Shown here: positions 217 to 6,702 of the stretch, piece by piece
Position numbering within the stretch: position 1 is the first letter of the stretch
Layout: every line of letters starts with the position of its first letter
Virus record (IMG/VR): IMGVR_UViG_2565956721_000006
DNA length: 6,702 nucleotides
Reading direction: 5' to 3' (one strand)
From: a virus
Lineage: Duplodnaviria; Heunggongvirae; Uroviricota; Caudoviricetes
The notes under the pieces: model-generated
Seen by the model: the letters and a program-made list of their open reading frames with translations, nothing else
What the model was told of the DNA's origin: nothing
The model's database searches: none
Position numbers and translations under genes: made by a program

Positions 217-540
217 AGTTAACGAATCAAACAAATCTTGCACATATTTTTCTTCTTTAGATTTGCGCTTCTGAGCAGCGAATACCTCAATTCTTTCAGT
301 CACAGCGTGATAAGCGGAATTAACAACGCCGTTAAGCACATAGCTAACGCAAAACAACAGGATGTAATACATCCAGTAATGAGGAAGGATTTCTGGATTA
401 TGCAGGTTTATCCATTCTTTTACGCTTACCGGCATAACAATAATCAATATGATCAGGATGATTAGCATATGAATCAACTGTTTAAGTGTCATTCCTTGCA
501 GGAAAAAATGCATTAGTTCCTGCCACCATGAGTTGTTCAT
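214..540 (-). CDS. sieB: Superinfection exclusion protein SieB, C-terminally truncated at the IS junction (108 aa)
   Basis: ORF-track protein MNNSWWQELMHFFLQGMTLKQLIHMLIILI... matches the lambda SieB N-terminus as I recall it; hydrophobic membrane segments present. No in-frame upstream start before stop at 582-580. Stop codon TGA (216-214) is the first three bases of the IS terminal repeat. Lambda SieB is substantially longer (about 190 aa, from memory). Confidence 0.75.
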   Translation of the reverse strand: MNNSWWQELMHFFLQGMTLKQLIHMLIILIILIIVMPVSVKEWINLHNPEILPHYWMYYILLFCVSYVLNGVVNSAYHAVTERIEVFAAQKRKSKEEKYVQDLFDSLT

Positions 541-683
541 CGGCGTTTCTCTTTTGCTCTCTGTAGGGGTGAATAGAGTTTATCCGATTTCTCGTTGTAG
601 GGGTACACGAGAACCACCGAGCCTGATGTGGTTAAAAGACAGGCACAATCTTTACTACCGCAATCCACTATTTAAGGTGATAT
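541..683. promoter_or_regulatory. Divergent intergenic region between sieB and orf28/ral; expected site of the sieB promoter; contains a 9-bp direct repeat TGTAGGGGT (562-570 and 596-604)
   Basis: Position between divergently oriented sieB and orf28/ral. Repeat seen directly in sequence. No confident -35/-10 assignment could be made by eye. Confidence 0.3.
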
Positions 684-770
684 ATGGAAGAAGAATTTGA
701 AGAGTTCGAAGAGCATCCTCAAGATGTGATGGAACAATACCAGGACTATCCGTATGACTACGACTATTGA
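684..770 (+). CDS. lambda orf28-like acidic 28-aa peptide, overlaps ral start
   Basis: ATG 684 to TGA 768-770 translates MEEEFEEFEEHPQDVMEQYQDYPYDYDY. Size and position (87 bp, overlapping ral start by 17 nt) match my recollection of the lambda orf28 annotation. Below ORF-track cut-off. Confidence 0.5.
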   Translation: MEEEFEEFEEHPQDVMEQYQDYPYDYDY

Positions 771-954
771 TACAAATCAATGGTGTGGACAATTCAAACG
801 ATGCAATGGATGCAAGCTGCAATCGGAATGCATGGTTAAGCCTGAAGAAATGTTTCCTGTAATGGAAGATGGGAAATATGTCGATAAATGGGCAATACGA
901 ACGACGGCAATGATTGCCAGAGAACTTGGTAAACAGAACAACAAAGCTGCCTGA
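754..954 (+). CDS. ral: Ral, restriction alleviation protein (modulates type I restriction-modification)
   Basis: 66-aa product MTTTIDTNQWCGQFKRCNGCKLQSECMVKPEEMFPVMEDGKYVDKWAIRTTAMIARELGKQNNKAA, essentially the lambda Ral sequence as I recall it; conserved position upstream of ea10. Confidence 0.9.
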   Translation: MTTTIDTNQWCGQFKRCNGCKLQSECMVKPEEMFPVMEDGKYVDKWAIRTTAMIARELGKQNNKAA

Positions 955-1088
955 TAGTGGCCTTTATTTTTGGCATAAATAACAGAATAAACACTGCACT
1001 GTGTATTCATTCCAACGAGTGAATACACGGAGCAATGTCGCTCGTAACTAAACAGGAGCCGACTTGTTCTGATTATTGGAAATCTTCT

Positions 1089-1116
1089 TTGCCCTCCAGT
1101 GTGAGGGCGATTTTTT
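1089..1116 (+). terminator. Putative intrinsic terminator between ral and ea10 (tL2-like position in the pL operon)
   Basis: Stem TTGCCCTC (1089-1096), loop CAGTGT, stem GAGGGCGA (1103-1110) with one G-U pair, immediately followed by TTTTTT (1111-1116), on the transcribed strand. Confidence 0.45.
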
Positions 1117-1136
1117 ATCTATGAGGATATGAATAG

Positions 1137-1505
1137 ATGTCAAACATCAAAAAATACATCATTGATTACGACTGGAAAGCATCAATAGAAATTGAAATTG
1201 ACCATGACGTAATGACAGAGGAAAAACTTCACCAGATTAATAATTTCTGGTCAGACTCTGAATACCGACTCAATAAACACGGCTCTGTATTAAATGCTGT
1301 ATTAATCATGCTGGCGCAACATGCTCTGCTTATAGCAATTTCAAGCGACTTAAATGCATATGGTGTTGTGTGTGAGTTCGACTGGAATGATGGAAATGGT
1401 CAGGAAGGATGGCCTCCAATGGATGGTAGTGAAGGAATAAGAATTACCGATATCGATACATCAGGAATATTTGATTCAGATGATATGACTATCAAGGCCG
1501 CCTGA
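1137..1505 (+). CDS. ea10: Ea10 early protein (lambda ea10)
   Basis: 122-aa ORF at the lambda ea10 position between ral and cIII; length identical to lambda Ea10 as I recall; acidic C-terminal half. Confidence 0.8.
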   Translation: MSNIKKYIIDYDWKASIEIEIDHDVMTEEKLHQINNFWSDSEYRLNKHGSVLNAVLIMLAQHALLIAISSDLNAYGVVCEFDWNDGNGQEGWPPMDGSEGIRITDIDTSGIFDSDDMTIKAA

Positions 1506-1530
1506 GCGCGGCGTTACCGCATACCAATTA

Positions 1531-1551
1531 CGCTTCACTCGAGGCGTTTTT
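1531..1551 (+). terminator. Putative intrinsic terminator between ea10 and cIII (tL3-like position)
   Basis: CGCTTC (1531-1536), loop ACTC, GAGGCG (1541-1546) with one G-U pair, followed by TTTTT (1547-1551); strong Shine-Dalgarno AAGGAG for cIII lies just downstream. Confidence 0.4.
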
Positions 1552-1577
1552 CGTTATGTATAAATAAGGAGCACACC

Positions 1578-1742
1578 ATGCAATATGCCATTGCAGGGTG
1601 GCCTGTTGCTGGCTGCCCTTCCGAATCTTTACTTGAACGAATCACCCGTAAATTACGTGACGGATGGAAACGCCTTATCGACATACTTAATCAGCCAGGA
1701 GTCCCAAAAAATGGATCAAACAATTATGGCTATCCAGACTAA
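1578..1742 (+). CDS. cIII: CIII, inhibitor of FtsH-mediated CII degradation
   Basis: ATG 1578 to TAA 1740-1742 translates [54 protein letters not shown] (54 aa), matching lambda CIII from memory. Preceded by AAGGAG. Missing from the ORF track because it is under the length cut-off. Confidence 0.9.
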   Translation: MQYAIAGWPVAGCPSESLLERITRKLRDGWKRLIDILNQPGVPKNGSNNYGYPD

Positions 1743-1854
1743 ATTCACTATCGCCACTTTTATTGGCGATGAAAAGATGTTTCGTGAGGCCGTCGACGCT
1801 TATAAAAAATGGATATTAATACTGAAACTGAGATCAAGCAAAAGCATTCACTAA
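1711..1854 (+). CDS. kil: Kil, host cell-division inhibitor
   Basis: Internal ATG at 1711 of the 1585..1854 track ORF gives [47 protein letters not shown] (47 aa), matching lambda Kil; overlaps the cIII stop and the gam upstream start as in lambda. Confidence 0.85.
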
Positions 1855-1929
1855 CCCCCTTTCCTGTTTTCCTAATCAGCCTGGCATTTCGCGGGCGATA
1901 TTTTCACAGCCATTTTCAGGAGTTCAGCC

Positions 1930-2226
1930 ATGAACGCTTATTACATTCAGGATCGTCTTGAGGCTCAGAGCTGGGCGCGTCACTACCAGCAGATCGCCCG
2001 TGAAGAGAAAGAGGCAGAACTGGCAGACGACATGGAAAAAGGCCTGCCCCAGCACCTGTTTGAATCGCTATGCATCGATCATTTACAACGCCACGGGGCC
2101 AGCAAAAAAGCCATTACCCGTGCGTTTGATGACGATGTTGAGTTTCAGGAGCGCATGGCAGAACACATCCGGTACATAGTTGAAACCATTGCTCACCATC
2201 AGGCTGATATTGATTCAGAGGTATAA
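1930..2226 (+). CDS. gam: Gam (GamS form), RecBCD nuclease inhibitor
   Basis: 98-aa product [44 protein letters not shown]... matches lambda GamS with a few substitutions. The upstream GamL start (ATG 1809) is in a different frame here (see findings). Confidence 0.9.
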
Positions 2227-2231
2227 AACGG

Positions 2232-3017
2232 ATGAGTACAGCACTCGCAACGCTGGCAGGGAAGCTGGCTGAACGTGTCGGCATGGATTCTGTCGACCCA
2301 CAGGAACTGATCACCACTCTTCGCCAGACGGCATTTAAAGGTGATGCCAGCGATGCGCAGTTCATCGCATTGTTGATCGTCGCCAACCAGTACGGCCTTA
2401 ATCCGTGGACGAAAGAAATTTACGCCTTCCCTGATAAGCAGAACGGCATTGTTCCGGTGGTGGGCGTTGATGGCTGGTCCCGCATCATCAATGAAAACCA
2501 GCAGTTTGATGGTATGGACTTTGAGCAGGACAATGAATCATGTACATGCCGGATTTACCGCAAAGACCGCAATCATCCGATCTGCGTTACCGAGTGGATG
2601 GATGAATGCCGCCGCGAACCATTCAAAACCCGCGAAGGCAGAGAAATCACGGGGCCGTGGCAGTCGCATCCCAAACGGATGTTACGGCATAAAGCCATGA
2701 TTCAGTGTGCCCGTCTGGCCTTCGGATTTGCTGGTATCTATGACAAGGATGAAGCCGAGCGCATTGTCGAAAATACCGCATACACTGCAGAACGTCAGCC
2801 GGAACGCGACATCACTCCGGTTAACGATGAAACCATGCAGGAGATTAACACTCTGCTGATTGCCCTGGACAAAACATGGGATGACGACTTATTGCCGCTC
2901 TGTTCCCAGATATTTCGCCGCGACATTCGCGCATCGTCAGAACTGACACAGGCCGAAGCAGTGAAAGCTCTTGGATTCCTGAAACAGAAAGCCACTGAGC
3001 AGAAGGTGGCAGCATGA
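2232..3017 (+). CDS. bet: Bet (Red-beta) single-strand annealing recombinase
   Basis: 261-aa product [66 protein letters not shown]... recognised as lambda Bet; ATGA start/stop overlap with exo at 3014-3017. Confidence 0.95.
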
Positions 3018-3694
3018 CACCGGACATTATCCTGCAGCGTACCGGGATCGACGTGAGAGCTGTCGAACAGGGGGATGATGCATGGCACAAATTACGGCTC
3101 GGCGTCATCACCGCTTCAGAAGTTCACAACGTGATAGCAAAGCCCCGCTCAGGAAAGAAGTGGCCTGACATGAAAATGTCCTACTTCCACACCCTGCTGG
3201 CTGAGGTTTGCACCGGTGTGGCTCCGGAAGTTAATGCTAAGGCGCTGGCGTGGGGAAAACAGTACGAGAACGACGCCAGAACCCTGTTTGAATTCACTTC
3301 CGGCGTGAATGTTACTGAATCCCCGATCATCTATCGCGACGAAAGTATGCGCACCGCCTGCTCTCCCGATGGTTTATGCAGTGACGGCAATGGCCTTGAG
3401 CTGAAATGCCCGTTTACCTCCCGGGATTTCATGAAGTTCCGGCTCGGTGGTTTCGAGGCCATAAAGTCGGCTTACATGGCCCAGGTGCAGTACAGCATGT
3501 GGGTGACACGAAAAGATGCCTGGTACTTTGCCAACTATGACCCACGAATGAAGCGTGAAGGCCTGCATTATGTCGTGGTTGAGCGGGATGAAAAGTACAT
3601 GGCGAGTTTTGACGAGATGGTGCCGGAGTTCATCGAAAAAATGGACGAAGCACTGGCTGAAATTGGTTTTGTATTTGGAGAGCAATGGCGATGA
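3014..3694 (+). CDS. exo: Exo (Red-alpha) 5'-3' dsDNA exonuclease
   Basis: 226-aa product [65 protein letters not shown]... recognised as lambda Exo; the same length as lambda Exo. Confidence 0.95.
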
Positions 3695-3873
3695 CCCATC
3701 CTCACGATAATATCCGGGTAGGCGCGATCACTTTCGTCTACTCCGTTACAAAGCGAGGCTGGGTATTTCACGGTCTTTCTGTTATCCGAAATCCGCTGAA
3801 AGCCCAGCGGCTGGCTGAGGAGATAAATAATAAACGGGGGGCGGTATGCACAAAGCATCTCCTGTTGAGTTAA
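3691..3873 (+). CDS. lambda orf60a-like hypothetical protein
   Basis: ATG 3691 overlaps the exo stop (ATGA); 60-aa product [60 protein letters not shown]. The track lists an earlier in-frame ATG at 3685. Position and size match the lambda orf60a annotation. Confidence 0.75.
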
Positions 3874-4037
3874 GAACGAGTATTGATTTGGCACATAGCC
3901 TTGCTCAAATTGGAGTCAGGTTTGTGCCAATACCAGCAGAAACAGACGAAGAATTTCATACGTTAGCCACATCCCTTTCACAAAAGCTGGAAATGATGGT
4001 GGCGAAAGCAGAAGCAGATGAGAGAGACCAGGTATGA
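3846..4037 (+). CDS. lambda orf63-like hypothetical protein
   Basis: 63-aa ORF overlapping the orf60a 3' end by 28 nt, the overlap I recall for lambda orf63/orf60a. Confidence 0.75.
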   Translation: MHKASPVELRTSIDLAHSLAQIGVRFVPIPAETDEEFHTLATSLSQKLEMMVAKAEADERDQV

Positions 4038-4047
4038 CAACCACTGA

Positions 4048-4230
4048 ATGCATTTTTCTGGCAGCGGGCTTCATATTCTGTGTGCTTATGCTTGCCGACA
4101 TGGGGCTTGTTCAGTGACACCTCAGCAAGAAAACGCCCTTCGCAGCATTGCCCGTCAGGCTAATTCTGAAATCAAAAAAGTCAGACAGCAGTTTCCAAAA
4201 ACGTCAATGACATTTGCCGTAGCGTACTGA
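4048..4230 (+). CDS. Hypothetical 60-aa ORF in the orf61-equivalent region; reading frame uncertain
   Basis: Track ORF MHFSGSGLHILCAYACRHGACSV...; an ATG at 4018 (expected lambda orf61 start) runs into TGA at 4045-4047 after 9 codons. A competing frame (4034..4117) encodes the hydrophobic peptide MTTTECIFLAAGFIFCVLMLADMGLVQ. Coding assignment here is ambiguous. Confidence 0.3.
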   Translation: MHFSGSGLHILCAYACRHGACSVTPQQENALRSIARQANSEIKKVRQQFPKTSMTFAVAY

Positions 4231-4423
4231 AGAAGCACCGCGAAACGGTAACGCTGAAGGGATTCACACCGACTCATTTAAGCCTGGCAATCGGCATGTT
4301 AAACGGCGTCTTTAAGGAACGATGAACATGAAAAGCAAAATTATCAGGGAGCTACAGGCTCCTTTTTTATTGTTCGCATTCACCCTCAAGCGTATTAACC
4401 AACAGTTCAGGGATTAATGAAAG

Positions 4424-4645
4424 ATGGCAGACATCATTGATTCAGCATCAGAAATAGAAGAATTACAGCGCAACACAGCAATAAAAATGCGCCGCCTGAA
4501 CTACCTGGCTGTATCTGCCACTCATTGTTGTGAGTGTGGCGATCCGATAGATGAACGAAGACGCCTGGCCGTTCAGGGTTGTCGGACTTGCGCCAGTTGC
4601 CAGCAAGATCTGGAGCTTATCCGCAAACAAAGGGGGATTAAGTGA
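4424..4645 (+). CDS. TraR/DksA-family C4 zinc-finger protein (lambda Orf73-like RNA polymerase-binding regulator)
   Basis: 73-aa product with CxC-x14-CxxCxxC (CCEC...CRTCASC) and GDPIDERRR motif resembling F-plasmid TraR CEACGNPIPEARRK; located where lambda encodes Orf73, just upstream of ea22. Confidence 0.75.
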   Translation: MADIIDSASEIEELQRNTAIKMRRLNYLAVSATHCCECGDPIDERRRLAVQGCRTCASCQQDLELIRKQRGIK

Positions 4646-4971
4646 TGGCTAACCTGCAACTTGCTGTTAAAAGTGAATACTTCGATGCCATGATTCGCGG
4701 AGAGAAAACGGAAGAGTATCGCTTGTGTAATGACTACTGGAATAAGCGAATTATGTTCCGGGAATATGACCGCCTGATTATCACAAAGGGATATCCGAAG
4801 CGCGACGATTCCAGTCGCAGAATTGATGTTCCGTATGACGGATATGAAGTGAAGACAATCACACATCCGCACTTTGGCGATAAACCGGTAAAGGTGTTCG
4901 CTATAAAGGTGAATATCAGCACTGAATATCAATCCGCACAACACAAGGTCAAGAATGTTCAGAGTGATTGA
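4645..4971 (+). CDS. ea22-like N-terminal ORF with ASCH/PUA-like motif (GxKxxExR)
   Basis: ATG 4645 overlaps the orf73 stop (TGATG); the track starts at GTG 4642. Product MANLQLAVKSEYFDAMIRGEKTEEYR... contains RGEKTEEYR, which fits the ASCH signature GxKxxExR. Start coincides with the lambda ea22 start by coordinate correspondence. Confidence 0.55.
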   Translation: MANLQLAVKSEYFDAMIRGEKTEEYRLCNDYWNKRIMFREYDRLIITKGYPKRDDSSRRIDVPYDGYEVKTITHPHFGDKPVKVFAIKVNISTEYQSAQHKVKNVQSD

Positions 4972-5194
4972 CCCTAACACCTGGTACGTCGACCACCACG
5001 GCACTCCCTGCAAAATCCTGCGTTCTACCCACAACAAAGTTCACTACATCCGAAAAGGCAGAACATGTATCGCCAGCATGTTCCGCTTTAATCATGACTT
5101 TGAACCTGTGAATAAAGCTGATGCAGATCGGATAGCAGAAGAGATCGAAACGGCAGAACACATTAAGAAGTTACGTGACATGCGCAGGAAATAG
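4955..5194 (+). CDS. ea22-like C-terminal ORF (+1 frame relative to 4645..4971), possible frameshifted continuation
   Basis: 79-aa ORF MFRVIDPNTWYVDHHG... with helical charged C-terminus. Its frame is open upstream to 4913 and overlaps the preceding ORF. Combined span 4645..5194 is 550 bp against 549 bp for lambda ea22 (from memory). Confidence 0.45.
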   Translation: MFRVIDPNTWYVDHHGTPCKILRSTHNKVHYIRKGRTCIASMFRFNHDFEPVNKADADRIAEEIETAEHIKKLRDMRRK

Positions 5195-5333
5195 AAAAAT
5201 TGATAAATTCAATACTGCATTTCTCAGCATTAAATTTATCTCTATGACCAGTCAAGAGATGTACCTGCCATGAGCTTAATATCATGTCAGATATATCGGT
5301 CACAAACTCCCTCAGCAGCTAAGAGGAGGACAA

Positions 5334-5570
5334 ATGTCTCGACTAATCACTTTACAGGACTGGGCTAAAGAAGAATTTGGGGACTTAGCACCAAGTGAGC
5401 GAGTTCTGAAAAAATACGCGCAAGGGAAAATGATGGCCCCACCCGCTATAAAAGTTGGTCGCTACTGGATGATTGACCGAAATTCCCGTTTTGTAGGAAC
5501 GCTTGCAGAACCGCAACTCCCAATAAACGCAAACCCAAAACTCCAAAGGATAATCGCTGATGGCTGCTAG
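5334..5570 (+). CDS. xis: Excisionase (Xis), lambda-type
   Basis: 78-aa product MSRLITLQDWAKEEF...PPAIKVGRYWMI resembles lambda Xis (MYLTLQEW...PPPVKDGREYLF). Strong SD AAGAGGAGGA at 5316-5325. 3' end overlaps the int start by 11 nt, as xis-int pairs typically do. Confidence 0.8.
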   Translation: MSRLITLQDWAKEEFGDLAPSERVLKKYAQGKMMAPPAIKVGRYWMIDRNSRFVGTLAEPQLPINANPKLQRIIADGC

Positions 5571-6702
5571 ACCCCGATCTCACAAAATCTCTATACCCAA
5601 TTTATATTGCAAATTAGATAAGCGAACCGGAAAGGTATATTGGCAATACAAACATCCACTATCCGGTCGTTTTCATAGCTTAGGAACTGATGAGAATGAA
5701 GCAAAACAAGTTGCTACTGAAGCAAATACCATTATTGCTGAACAACGTACCAGACAAATATTAAGCGTCAATGAGCGTCTGGAAAGAATGAAAGGCAGGC
5801 GCTCAGACATTACGGTGACAGAATGGCTTGATAAATATATTTCTATCCAAGAGGACAGGCTGCAACATAATGAACTAAGACCCAACTCCTATCGGCAAAA
5901 AGGCAAACCCATTCGTCTTTTCCGTGAGCATTGTGGAATGCAACACCTCAAGGATATTACCGCACTTGATATTGCCGAAATAATTGATGCTGTAAAGGCT
6001 GAAGGTCATAACAGGATGGCGCAAGTCGTGAGAATGGTGTTGATCGACGTCTTCAAAGAAGCACAACACGCAGGACATGTTCCGCCAGGATTTAACCCAG
6101 CGCAGGCAACAAAACAACCGCGAAATCGAGTAAACCGCCAAAGATTGTCACTGCCCGAATGGCAGGCAATATTTGACAGCGTAAGCAGACGGCAGCCCTA
6201 TTTAAAATGCGGCATGCTACTTGCTCTTGTTACTGGACAACGTTTAGGCGATATCTGCAATTTGAAATTCTCTGATATATGGGACGACATGTTGCACATT
6301 ACTCAGGAAAAAACCGGTTCAAAACTTGCTATTCCGCTTAACCTGAAATGCGATGCTCTGAATATTACCCTTCGTGAAGTTATATCTCAGTGCAGGGATG
6401 CTGTTGTTAGTAAATATCTGGTCCATTACCGTCACACTACCTCTCAAGCAAACAGAGGAGACCAGGTTTCTGCGAATACTCTGACAACGGCTTTTAAAAA
6501 GGCCCGGGAAAAATGTGGCATAAAATGGGAGCAAGGAACTGCGCCCACATTTCATGAGCAGCGATCTCTGTCAGAACGGTTATATCGGGAACAGGGTCTG
6601 GATACGCAAAAGTTGTTAGGCCATAAATCCAGAAAAATGACCGACCGATACAATGATGATCGTGGTAAAGACTGGATTATCGTAGATATCAAAACAGCAT
6701 AG
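5560..6702 (+). CDS. int: Tyrosine site-specific integrase (lambda Int family, non-lambda allele)
   Basis: 380-aa product; C-terminal catalytic motifs LALVTGQRLGDI, FHEQRSLSERLY, LLGHKS, RYNDDRG align with lambda Int R212, H308/R311, H333 and Y342 blocks. N-terminal half differs from lambda Int. Window ends at its stop codon. Confidence 0.95.
   Translation: MAARPRSHKISIPNLYCKLDKRTGKVYWQYKHPLSGRFHSLGTDENEAKQVATEANTIIAEQRTRQILSVNERLERMKGRRSDITVTEWLDKYISIQEDRLQHNELRPNSYRQKGKPIRLFREHCGMQHLKDITALDIAEIIDAVKAEGHNRMAQVVRMVLIDVFKEAQHAGHVPPGFNPAQATKQPRNRVNRQRLSLPEWQAIFDSVSRRQPYLKCGMLLALVTGQRLGDICNLKFSDIWDDMLHITQEKTGSKLAIPLNLKCDALNITLREVISQCRDAVVSKYLVHYRHTTSQANRGDQVSANTLTTAFKKAREKCGIKWEQGTAPTFHEQRSLSERLYREQGLDTQKLLGHKSRKMTDRYNDDRGKDWIIVDIKTA

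Follow-up and report, generated by a model that had tools for sequence, protein, structure and literature searches.

A probable ASCH-fold protein from a divergent, prophage-borne subfamily, encoded within the exo-xis part of a phage 21/ev207-type operon

Proteins of the ASCH superfamily (Pfam clan PUA) carry the signature GxKxx[E/T/S]xR (after Iyer et al. 2006, as summarized in preprint 10.64898/2026.02.27.708502). The same preprint reports that all 19 of the ASCH proteins assayed, which cover both the Glu type (GKER) and the Thr type (GKTR) but include none from a phage, removed N4-acetylcytidine 34 (ac4C34) from Escherichia coli tRNA in vitro. Mutagenesis in that work found the Lys and Glu of the octapeptide to be essential in TthASCH, EOLA1, and TRIP4; in TthASCH, the Arg and an aromatic residue nine before the Lys also contribute, and Asp can stand in for the Glu (preprint 10.64898/2026.02.27.708502). 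The ac4C amidohydrolase YqfB of E. coli (PDB 1te7/9kyf) employs K21, T24, E74, and R26 (PMC6972931). A further solved structure, PDB 3iuw, is the 'activating signal cointegrator' NP_814290.1 of Enterococcus faecalis V583, assigned to Pfam DUF3850 (PF12961) and ASCH (PF04266). Here, we compare with these proteins the 108-amino-acid product of an open reading frame (ORF) in the virus record IMGVR_UViG_2565956721_000006 (IMG/VR; Caudoviricetes); the whole stretch of DNA analyzed, 6,702 nucleotides in length, is called the window, and the product of this ORF the window protein. The coding sequence, which belongs to phrog_625, occupies positions 4645-4971 of the plus strand with its stop codon included; the ATG at 4645 and the TGA at 4969-4971 are those of the original prediction and agree with the annotated coding sequence in Escherichia phage ev207. 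That prediction, made from the DNA letters, proposed, as something not known to be a standard description of Ea22, that an Ea22-like N-terminal ORF contains an ASCH/PUA-like motif. Overall, it is partly supported: the ASCH fold was upheld, whereas the relation to Ea22 and the novelty were not, and the protein is a very common, divergent prophage member of a known superfamily.

Octapeptide, fold, and nearest relatives

The sequence RGEKTEEYR is present as predicted, at residues 18-26 (nucleotides 4696-4722). It contains the ASCH octapeptide GEKTEEYR (G19-x-K21-x-x-E24-x-R26; residues 19-26, nucleotides 4699-4722, plus strand), which is of the GKER type and covers the loop after helix 1 together with strand 2. 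This is the only match to GxKxxExR in a six-frame translation of the window; by chance, about 0.09 matches are expected per mononucleotide-shuffled window, and a residue-shuffled copy of the protein has one with a probability of 0.002. Taken alone, the match is thus only mildly improbable, and conservation is the stronger and decisive argument. Two sets were compared: 71 close homologues, and 128 diverse representatives, whose identity to the window protein is 38-76% and stays below 58% in nearly every case. The exact motif was kept in 70 of the 71 and in 115 of the 128. Within the diverse set, K21 is invariant (128/128), E24 is replaced once, by Asp (127/128), and R26 is found in 125, as is an aromatic residue (Tyr, Trp, or Phe) at the Y12 position. 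The family also has a conserved segment of its own, H74-P-H76-F77-G78 (nucleotides 4864-4878, plus strand), in which the diverse representatives retain H74 in 117, H76 in 83, F77 in 118, and G78 in 115 cases. This segment lies outside the canonical ASCH signature and is a candidate for the second half of an active or binding site.

The beta-rich sequence said to flank the motif was likewise recovered: the predicted secondary structure consists of a strand at residues 2-8, a helix at 10-17, a strand at 23-27, a helix at 30-37, and strands at 41-48, 59-63, 67-72, and 82-88, followed by a low-confidence tail helix at 93-105. Judged by sequence comparison alone, the evidence for ASCH membership is weak. 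The window protein misses the gathering threshold of PF04266 (14.3 bits versus 21.2, E 0.067) and matches the profile over residues 6-28 only; matches were obtained for 37 of the 71 close homologues, below threshold, and at E<0.01 for 9 of the 128 diverse representatives, the best at 1.3e-4. An NCBIfam search with the window protein gave no match, and neither the protein nor two profiles of its family had a significant match among the PDB sequences, where 3iuw was reached only at E 0.38. When families were aligned with each other by hhalign, the window-protein family matched the 3iuw family at E 6.4e-7 (probability 92%); the match spans 31 columns and brings the two octapeptides into register. 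The corresponding comparison with the YqfB family, for which the alignment is shallow and YqfB itself represents a divergent GKTR branch, was not significant (E 0.13); it paired G19, K21, E24, and R26 with G19, K21, T24, and R26 of YqfB. A PF04266 score below threshold is not evidence against membership because genuine ASCH families barely detect each other by sequence (the 3iuw-family profile reaches YqfB only at E 0.06), but it made the ASCH label worth an independent check by structure. The ASCH/PUA-like assignment of the original prediction therefore stands as regards the motif, the fold, and the local profile match to the 3iuw family, but finds no backing in Pfam at threshold or in the YqfB profile. 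We consider it highly probable that the window protein is a single domain with the ASCH-superfamily fold, a PUA-like beta-barrel.

Within the superfamily, the window protein belongs to a divergent subfamily (phrog_625), whose nearest kin are the small proteins of the phage-borne DUF3850/3iuw branch. This kinship is detectable only through hhalign and structure: the PF12961 (DUF3850) profile had no match to the window protein and only weak matches to one of the 71 close homologues (E 0.019) and four of the 128 diverse representatives (E 0.0017). To represent the 3iuw family, a full ORF of this type was taken from an Enterococcus phage and a family alignment was built on it, in which most members are annotated with both PF12961 and PF04266. 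The ORF of Enterococcus phage Efs 1-1-1 (locus L007, positions 395-643) is 100% identical to 3iuw over a 31-residue fragment, and its family profile matches at E 1.9e-39; phages of Enterococcus and Listeria often carry relatives of 3iuw. Since 3iuw matches a phage ORF, the closest protein of solved structure is itself an uncharacterized phage ASCH/DUF3850 protein. The two proteins are nonetheless far apart. At the profile level, only the N-terminal 31 columns align; 3iuw has the motif RKTFEIR, with Arg at the Gly position of the octapeptide although its family consensus has Gly; the C-terminal two thirds contain GYP and HPHFG in the window protein but NDR and DYAQ in 3iuw; and the hosts are Firmicutes for 3iuw and Proteobacteria for the window family.

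The GKER-type proteins, namely TthASCH (2DP9/1WK2), EOLA1, and the ASCH domain of TRIP4, share the Lys-Glu dyad with the window family. YqfB differs from the window protein: position 24 is Glu in the window protein but Thr in YqfB, nothing aligns beyond the motif, and Glu74 and His70 of YqfB (PMC6972931) lie in a helical insert without an evident counterpart in the window protein. YqfB is also a chromosomal housekeeping gene and not a phage gene. A search of longer family members against Pfam and PHROGs for recurrent fusion partners found none, only single cases with RVT_1 and SpoU_methylas_C. The structural model is matched by A0A8S5UN54, a viral protein of 168 amino acids in BFVD named 'restriction alleviation protein' (Foldseek E 2.9e-06, 29% identity), which may be a fusion of this ASCH domain with a Lar-like module.

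Proposed function and rival explanations

Because the phage family keeps Y12, K21, E24, and R26, the counterparts of residues reported as essential (Lys, Glu) or contributing (the aromatic residue, Arg) in ASCH enzymes, a small RNA-directed Lys-Glu hydrolase seems the most likely activity. More exactly, we propose, with a probability of about 0.4, that this early accessory ASCH protein of a phage 21/ev207-like lambdoid phage would act as a Lys21-Glu24 N4-acyl-cytidine hydrolase. Coupling of its gene to that of the RNA-polymerase-binding, TraR-like Orf73 would have it synthesized within the first minutes after infection or induction. The protein would then dock on RNA, and the invariant Lys21-Glu24 pair would serve as the hydrolytic dyad, assisted by Arg26 and the aromatic Tyr12/Phe13, to take the N4-acyl group off cytidine in RNA or tRNA; in E. 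coli, candidate substrates would be ac4C34 of elongator tRNA-Met or free ac4C. It would modulate host translation or RNA metabolism while being dispensable. This proposal comes with caveats. The literature is split on whether Glu-type ASCH proteins hydrolyze ac4C, and ZmASCH is a ribonuclease; the family is also found in phages of hosts without confirmed tRNA ac4C; the structural scores of the window protein to TthASCH are modest, and no equivalent of Tth Tyr81 could be placed; and the mechanism leaves unaccounted for the family's own conserved residues W32, R35, G49-Y50-P51, and H74-P-H76-F77-G78.

The protein might instead bind without catalysis, in the manner of EVE, YTH, and SRA domains and of ASCH proteins predicted to bind modified DNA; it would read RNA or a modified DNA base, and its occupancy would tune early development, for example the choice between lysis and lysogeny, as other exo-xis proteins do. 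We regard this as unlikely, though it is the strongest of the competitors. A metal-dependent, single-stranded-RNA ribonuclease of the ZmASCH type, which would break down transcripts of the host or the phage soon after infection, has a distinctly smaller chance. Slightly less credible again is a counter-defense deacetylase that would reverse acetylation by GNAT toxins or defense systems, e.g., on aminoacyl-tRNA or bases. Its appeal comes from gene neighborhoods, in that the ASCH gene of an O157:H7 clade-8 prophage adjoins an N-acetyltransferase gene (PMC8553066) and the distant family member P0226 lies 66 nucleotides upstream of a PF00583 GNAT gene, and from the reports of ASCH proteins as amidohydrolases. 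However, GNAT adjacency was seen in only one of about ten sampled lineages; none of the 21 clusters of neighbors from 80 lambdoid loci, which were not profiled, was GNAT-like; a PADLOC match is absent; and the O157 and GNAT-EVE-associated ASCH proteins may belong to another subfamily.

The original prediction had taken the ORF to be an N-terminal piece of Ea22, that is, of a split or divergent form of this pro-lysogenic protein. Two observations would fit: the ORF directly follows orf73, the slot that ea22 occupies in lambda, and at two IMG/VR loci, the ORF that directly precedes the ASCH gene has the same ending as lambda Ea22, ...IRIKGE. The proteins themselves, however, speak against it. 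By BLASTP, neither the 108-amino-acid ORF nor the DUF4222 ORF downstream resembles lambda Ea22, the former giving only a chance match of 10 residues (E 0.46). The Ea22 literature divides that protein into an N-terminal region, a coiled coil (tetramer), and a C-terminal domain ending in K/RGE, whereas the window protein is a 108-amino-acid beta-barrel, modeled without a coiled coil, that ends in ...VQSD. Stx2 phage II has both genes, orf73 being followed there by an ead/Ea22-like coding sequence and the ASCH coding sequence lying separately, near xis; moreover, members of the family are present in the nin region and in phages of other kinds, namely Mu-like phages, P2-like phages, and virulent Jerseyviruses. 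An Ea22 origin is thus exceedingly improbable. The likeness to lambda Ea22 is one of location alone: both genes lie downstream of orf73, in the accessory region between exo and xis. The phage 21/ev207 lineage carries the ASCH gene where lambda has ea22, the two being unrelated.

A bolder form of the hydrolase proposal, which we think improbable, would make the protein a phage eraser of RNA modification, i.e., an early, TraR-coupled ASCH deacylase that would strip ac4C from the wobble position of the host elongator tRNA-Met or remove another N4-acyl RNA mark, or undo acetylation by GNAT toxins. If that were true, the phage could retune host decoding or evade acetylation-based defense during the lysis-lysogeny window, and no viral 'eraser' of a tRNA modification would have preceded this one, whose gene is present in roughly one in four complete E. 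coli genomes.

The operon and the boundaries of the gene

Over positions 217-6702, the window shares 99.86% identity with Escherichia phage ev207, a phage 21-like Jouyvirus. The window is a pL operon of the phage 21/ev207 type, and its plus strand, on which all of the following genes are located, corresponds to the leftward early operon. The genes ral, ea10, and cIII/kil, in that order, precede gam (1930-2226), bet (2232-3017), and exo (3014-3694); next are orf60a/DUF1317 (3685-3873), orf63/DUF1382 (3846-4037), an orf61-like ORF (4048-4230), orf73 (4424-4645), the ASCH gene, a DUF4222 ORF (phrog_285; 4955-5194), xis (5334-5570), and int (from 5560 to the window end). From this order, the 108-amino-acid ORF sits in the 'exo-xis' accessory region. 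The orf73 product (phrog_54) is a C4 zinc-finger protein of the TraR/DksA type (Pfam zf-dskA_traR, 6.7e-09); against TIGR02419, it scores 55.1 bits (E 8.7e-15), under the cut-off of 59.7 bits. Its N-terminus has the DxxDxA hallmark (D3-I-I-D6-S-A8) described for lambda Orf73/TraR, and it is presumably a binder of the RNA-polymerase secondary channel. Bases 1-216 are outside the ev207 alignment. The minus-strand, sieB-like ORF (540 down to 214, 108 amino acids) ends exactly at the 216/217 breakpoint, and its ev207 counterpart has 193 amino acids; its C-terminus looks to have been truncated or replaced at a mosaic junction.

The start signals of the ASCH gene overlap the end of orf73. A Shine-Dalgarno-like AGGGGGA (4631-4637, plus strand) lies 8 nucleotides before the ASCH ATG, within the last orf73 codons, and the curated phage 21 record annotates a ribosome-binding site at the equivalent position; the orf73 stop and the ASCH start share one base in TGATG (4643-4647, plus strand). 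This overlap is typical of translational coupling, here to the TraR-like orf73, and together with the Shine-Dalgarno sequence it makes the gene look expressed. At the other end, the ASCH gene overlaps the start of the DUF4222 gene by 17 nucleotides (4955-4971, plus strand). The window protein has a variant-specific C-terminal tail (residues 93-108, nucleotides 4921-4968, plus strand) that is missing in most homologues and in which the confidence of the model (predicted local distance difference test, pLDDT) drops from 61 to 47; 19-20 residues follow the VFAIKV core in the window variant versus 4-7 in most family members. A low-confidence, 16-residue tail that overlaps the DUF4222 start suggests another mosaic junction.

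In 80 viral loci, the ORFs upstream of the ASCH gene fell into 14 unrelated clusters. Several of these unrelated proteins share a C-terminus of ...(Q)EVNRG or ...EEGRG, and orf73 in the window ends in ...QRGIK. Because the Arg-Gly codons in common are also the Shine-Dalgarno sequence of the ASCH gene, a recombination junction appears to lie within the final codons of whichever gene precedes the ASCH cassette. The ...RG tails also bring to mind the K/RGE ending that Ea22 proteins are reported to conserve.

Distribution, existing labels, and significance

Of 5426 complete E. coli genomes, 1487 (27%) have the gene; many Stx-converting phages carry it too, and it is present in 332 phage records. 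For phage ev207 and for the listed E. coli genome rows alike, RefSeq/PGAP already gives the exact protein the name 'ASCH domain-containing protein', and the ASCH label was thus not new when the original prediction was made; phrog_625 is labeled 'unknown function' in PHROGs and the curated phage 21 record calls the protein hypothetical. The exo-xis and Ea22 literature that was searched for the term does not mention ASCH.

Neighboring genes were surveyed in 80 IMG/VR loci, 10 loci of relatives, and three annotated phages; a search for loci with the close alignment recovered near-identical lambdoid loci only. Across this census, there was no consistent gene partner, and GNAT adjacency occurred in one lineage only. 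The PADLOC models gave no match at E<=0.1 for the ASCH protein or either of its neighbors. The P2-like Ralstonia phage RSA1 has a family member in its early operon, a virulent Jerseyvirus has another, and one adjoins an integrase; the ASCH family is a mobile early-gene cassette. Individual settings are varied. An Erwinia prophage has a member in its nin region, between P and ninB (L011, 5001-5285), and in a Mu-like phage, a member lies between GemA and Mor, with a Dam-type methyltransferase immediately downstream of it (L102, 3501-4648). The distant member P0226 (L095-L097, 4001-4958) is 66-68 nucleotides upstream of the GNAT acetyltransferase (PF00583); this pair is flanked by an NAD-dependent DNA ligase (LigA) and a RecD2-like helicase, with TraG present, and the LigA-ASCH-GNAT-RecD2-TraG element looks like a conjugative element.

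The analysis corrects the Ea22 mislabel and confirms a database ASCH label that had rested on weak sequence evidence. If the claimed tRNA ac4C deacetylase activity of ASCH proteins does not extend to this family, the window protein would be one more small accessory nucleic-acid-binding protein; if it does, the operon that governs early development in temperate coliphages would encode an enzyme that edits the epitranscriptome.
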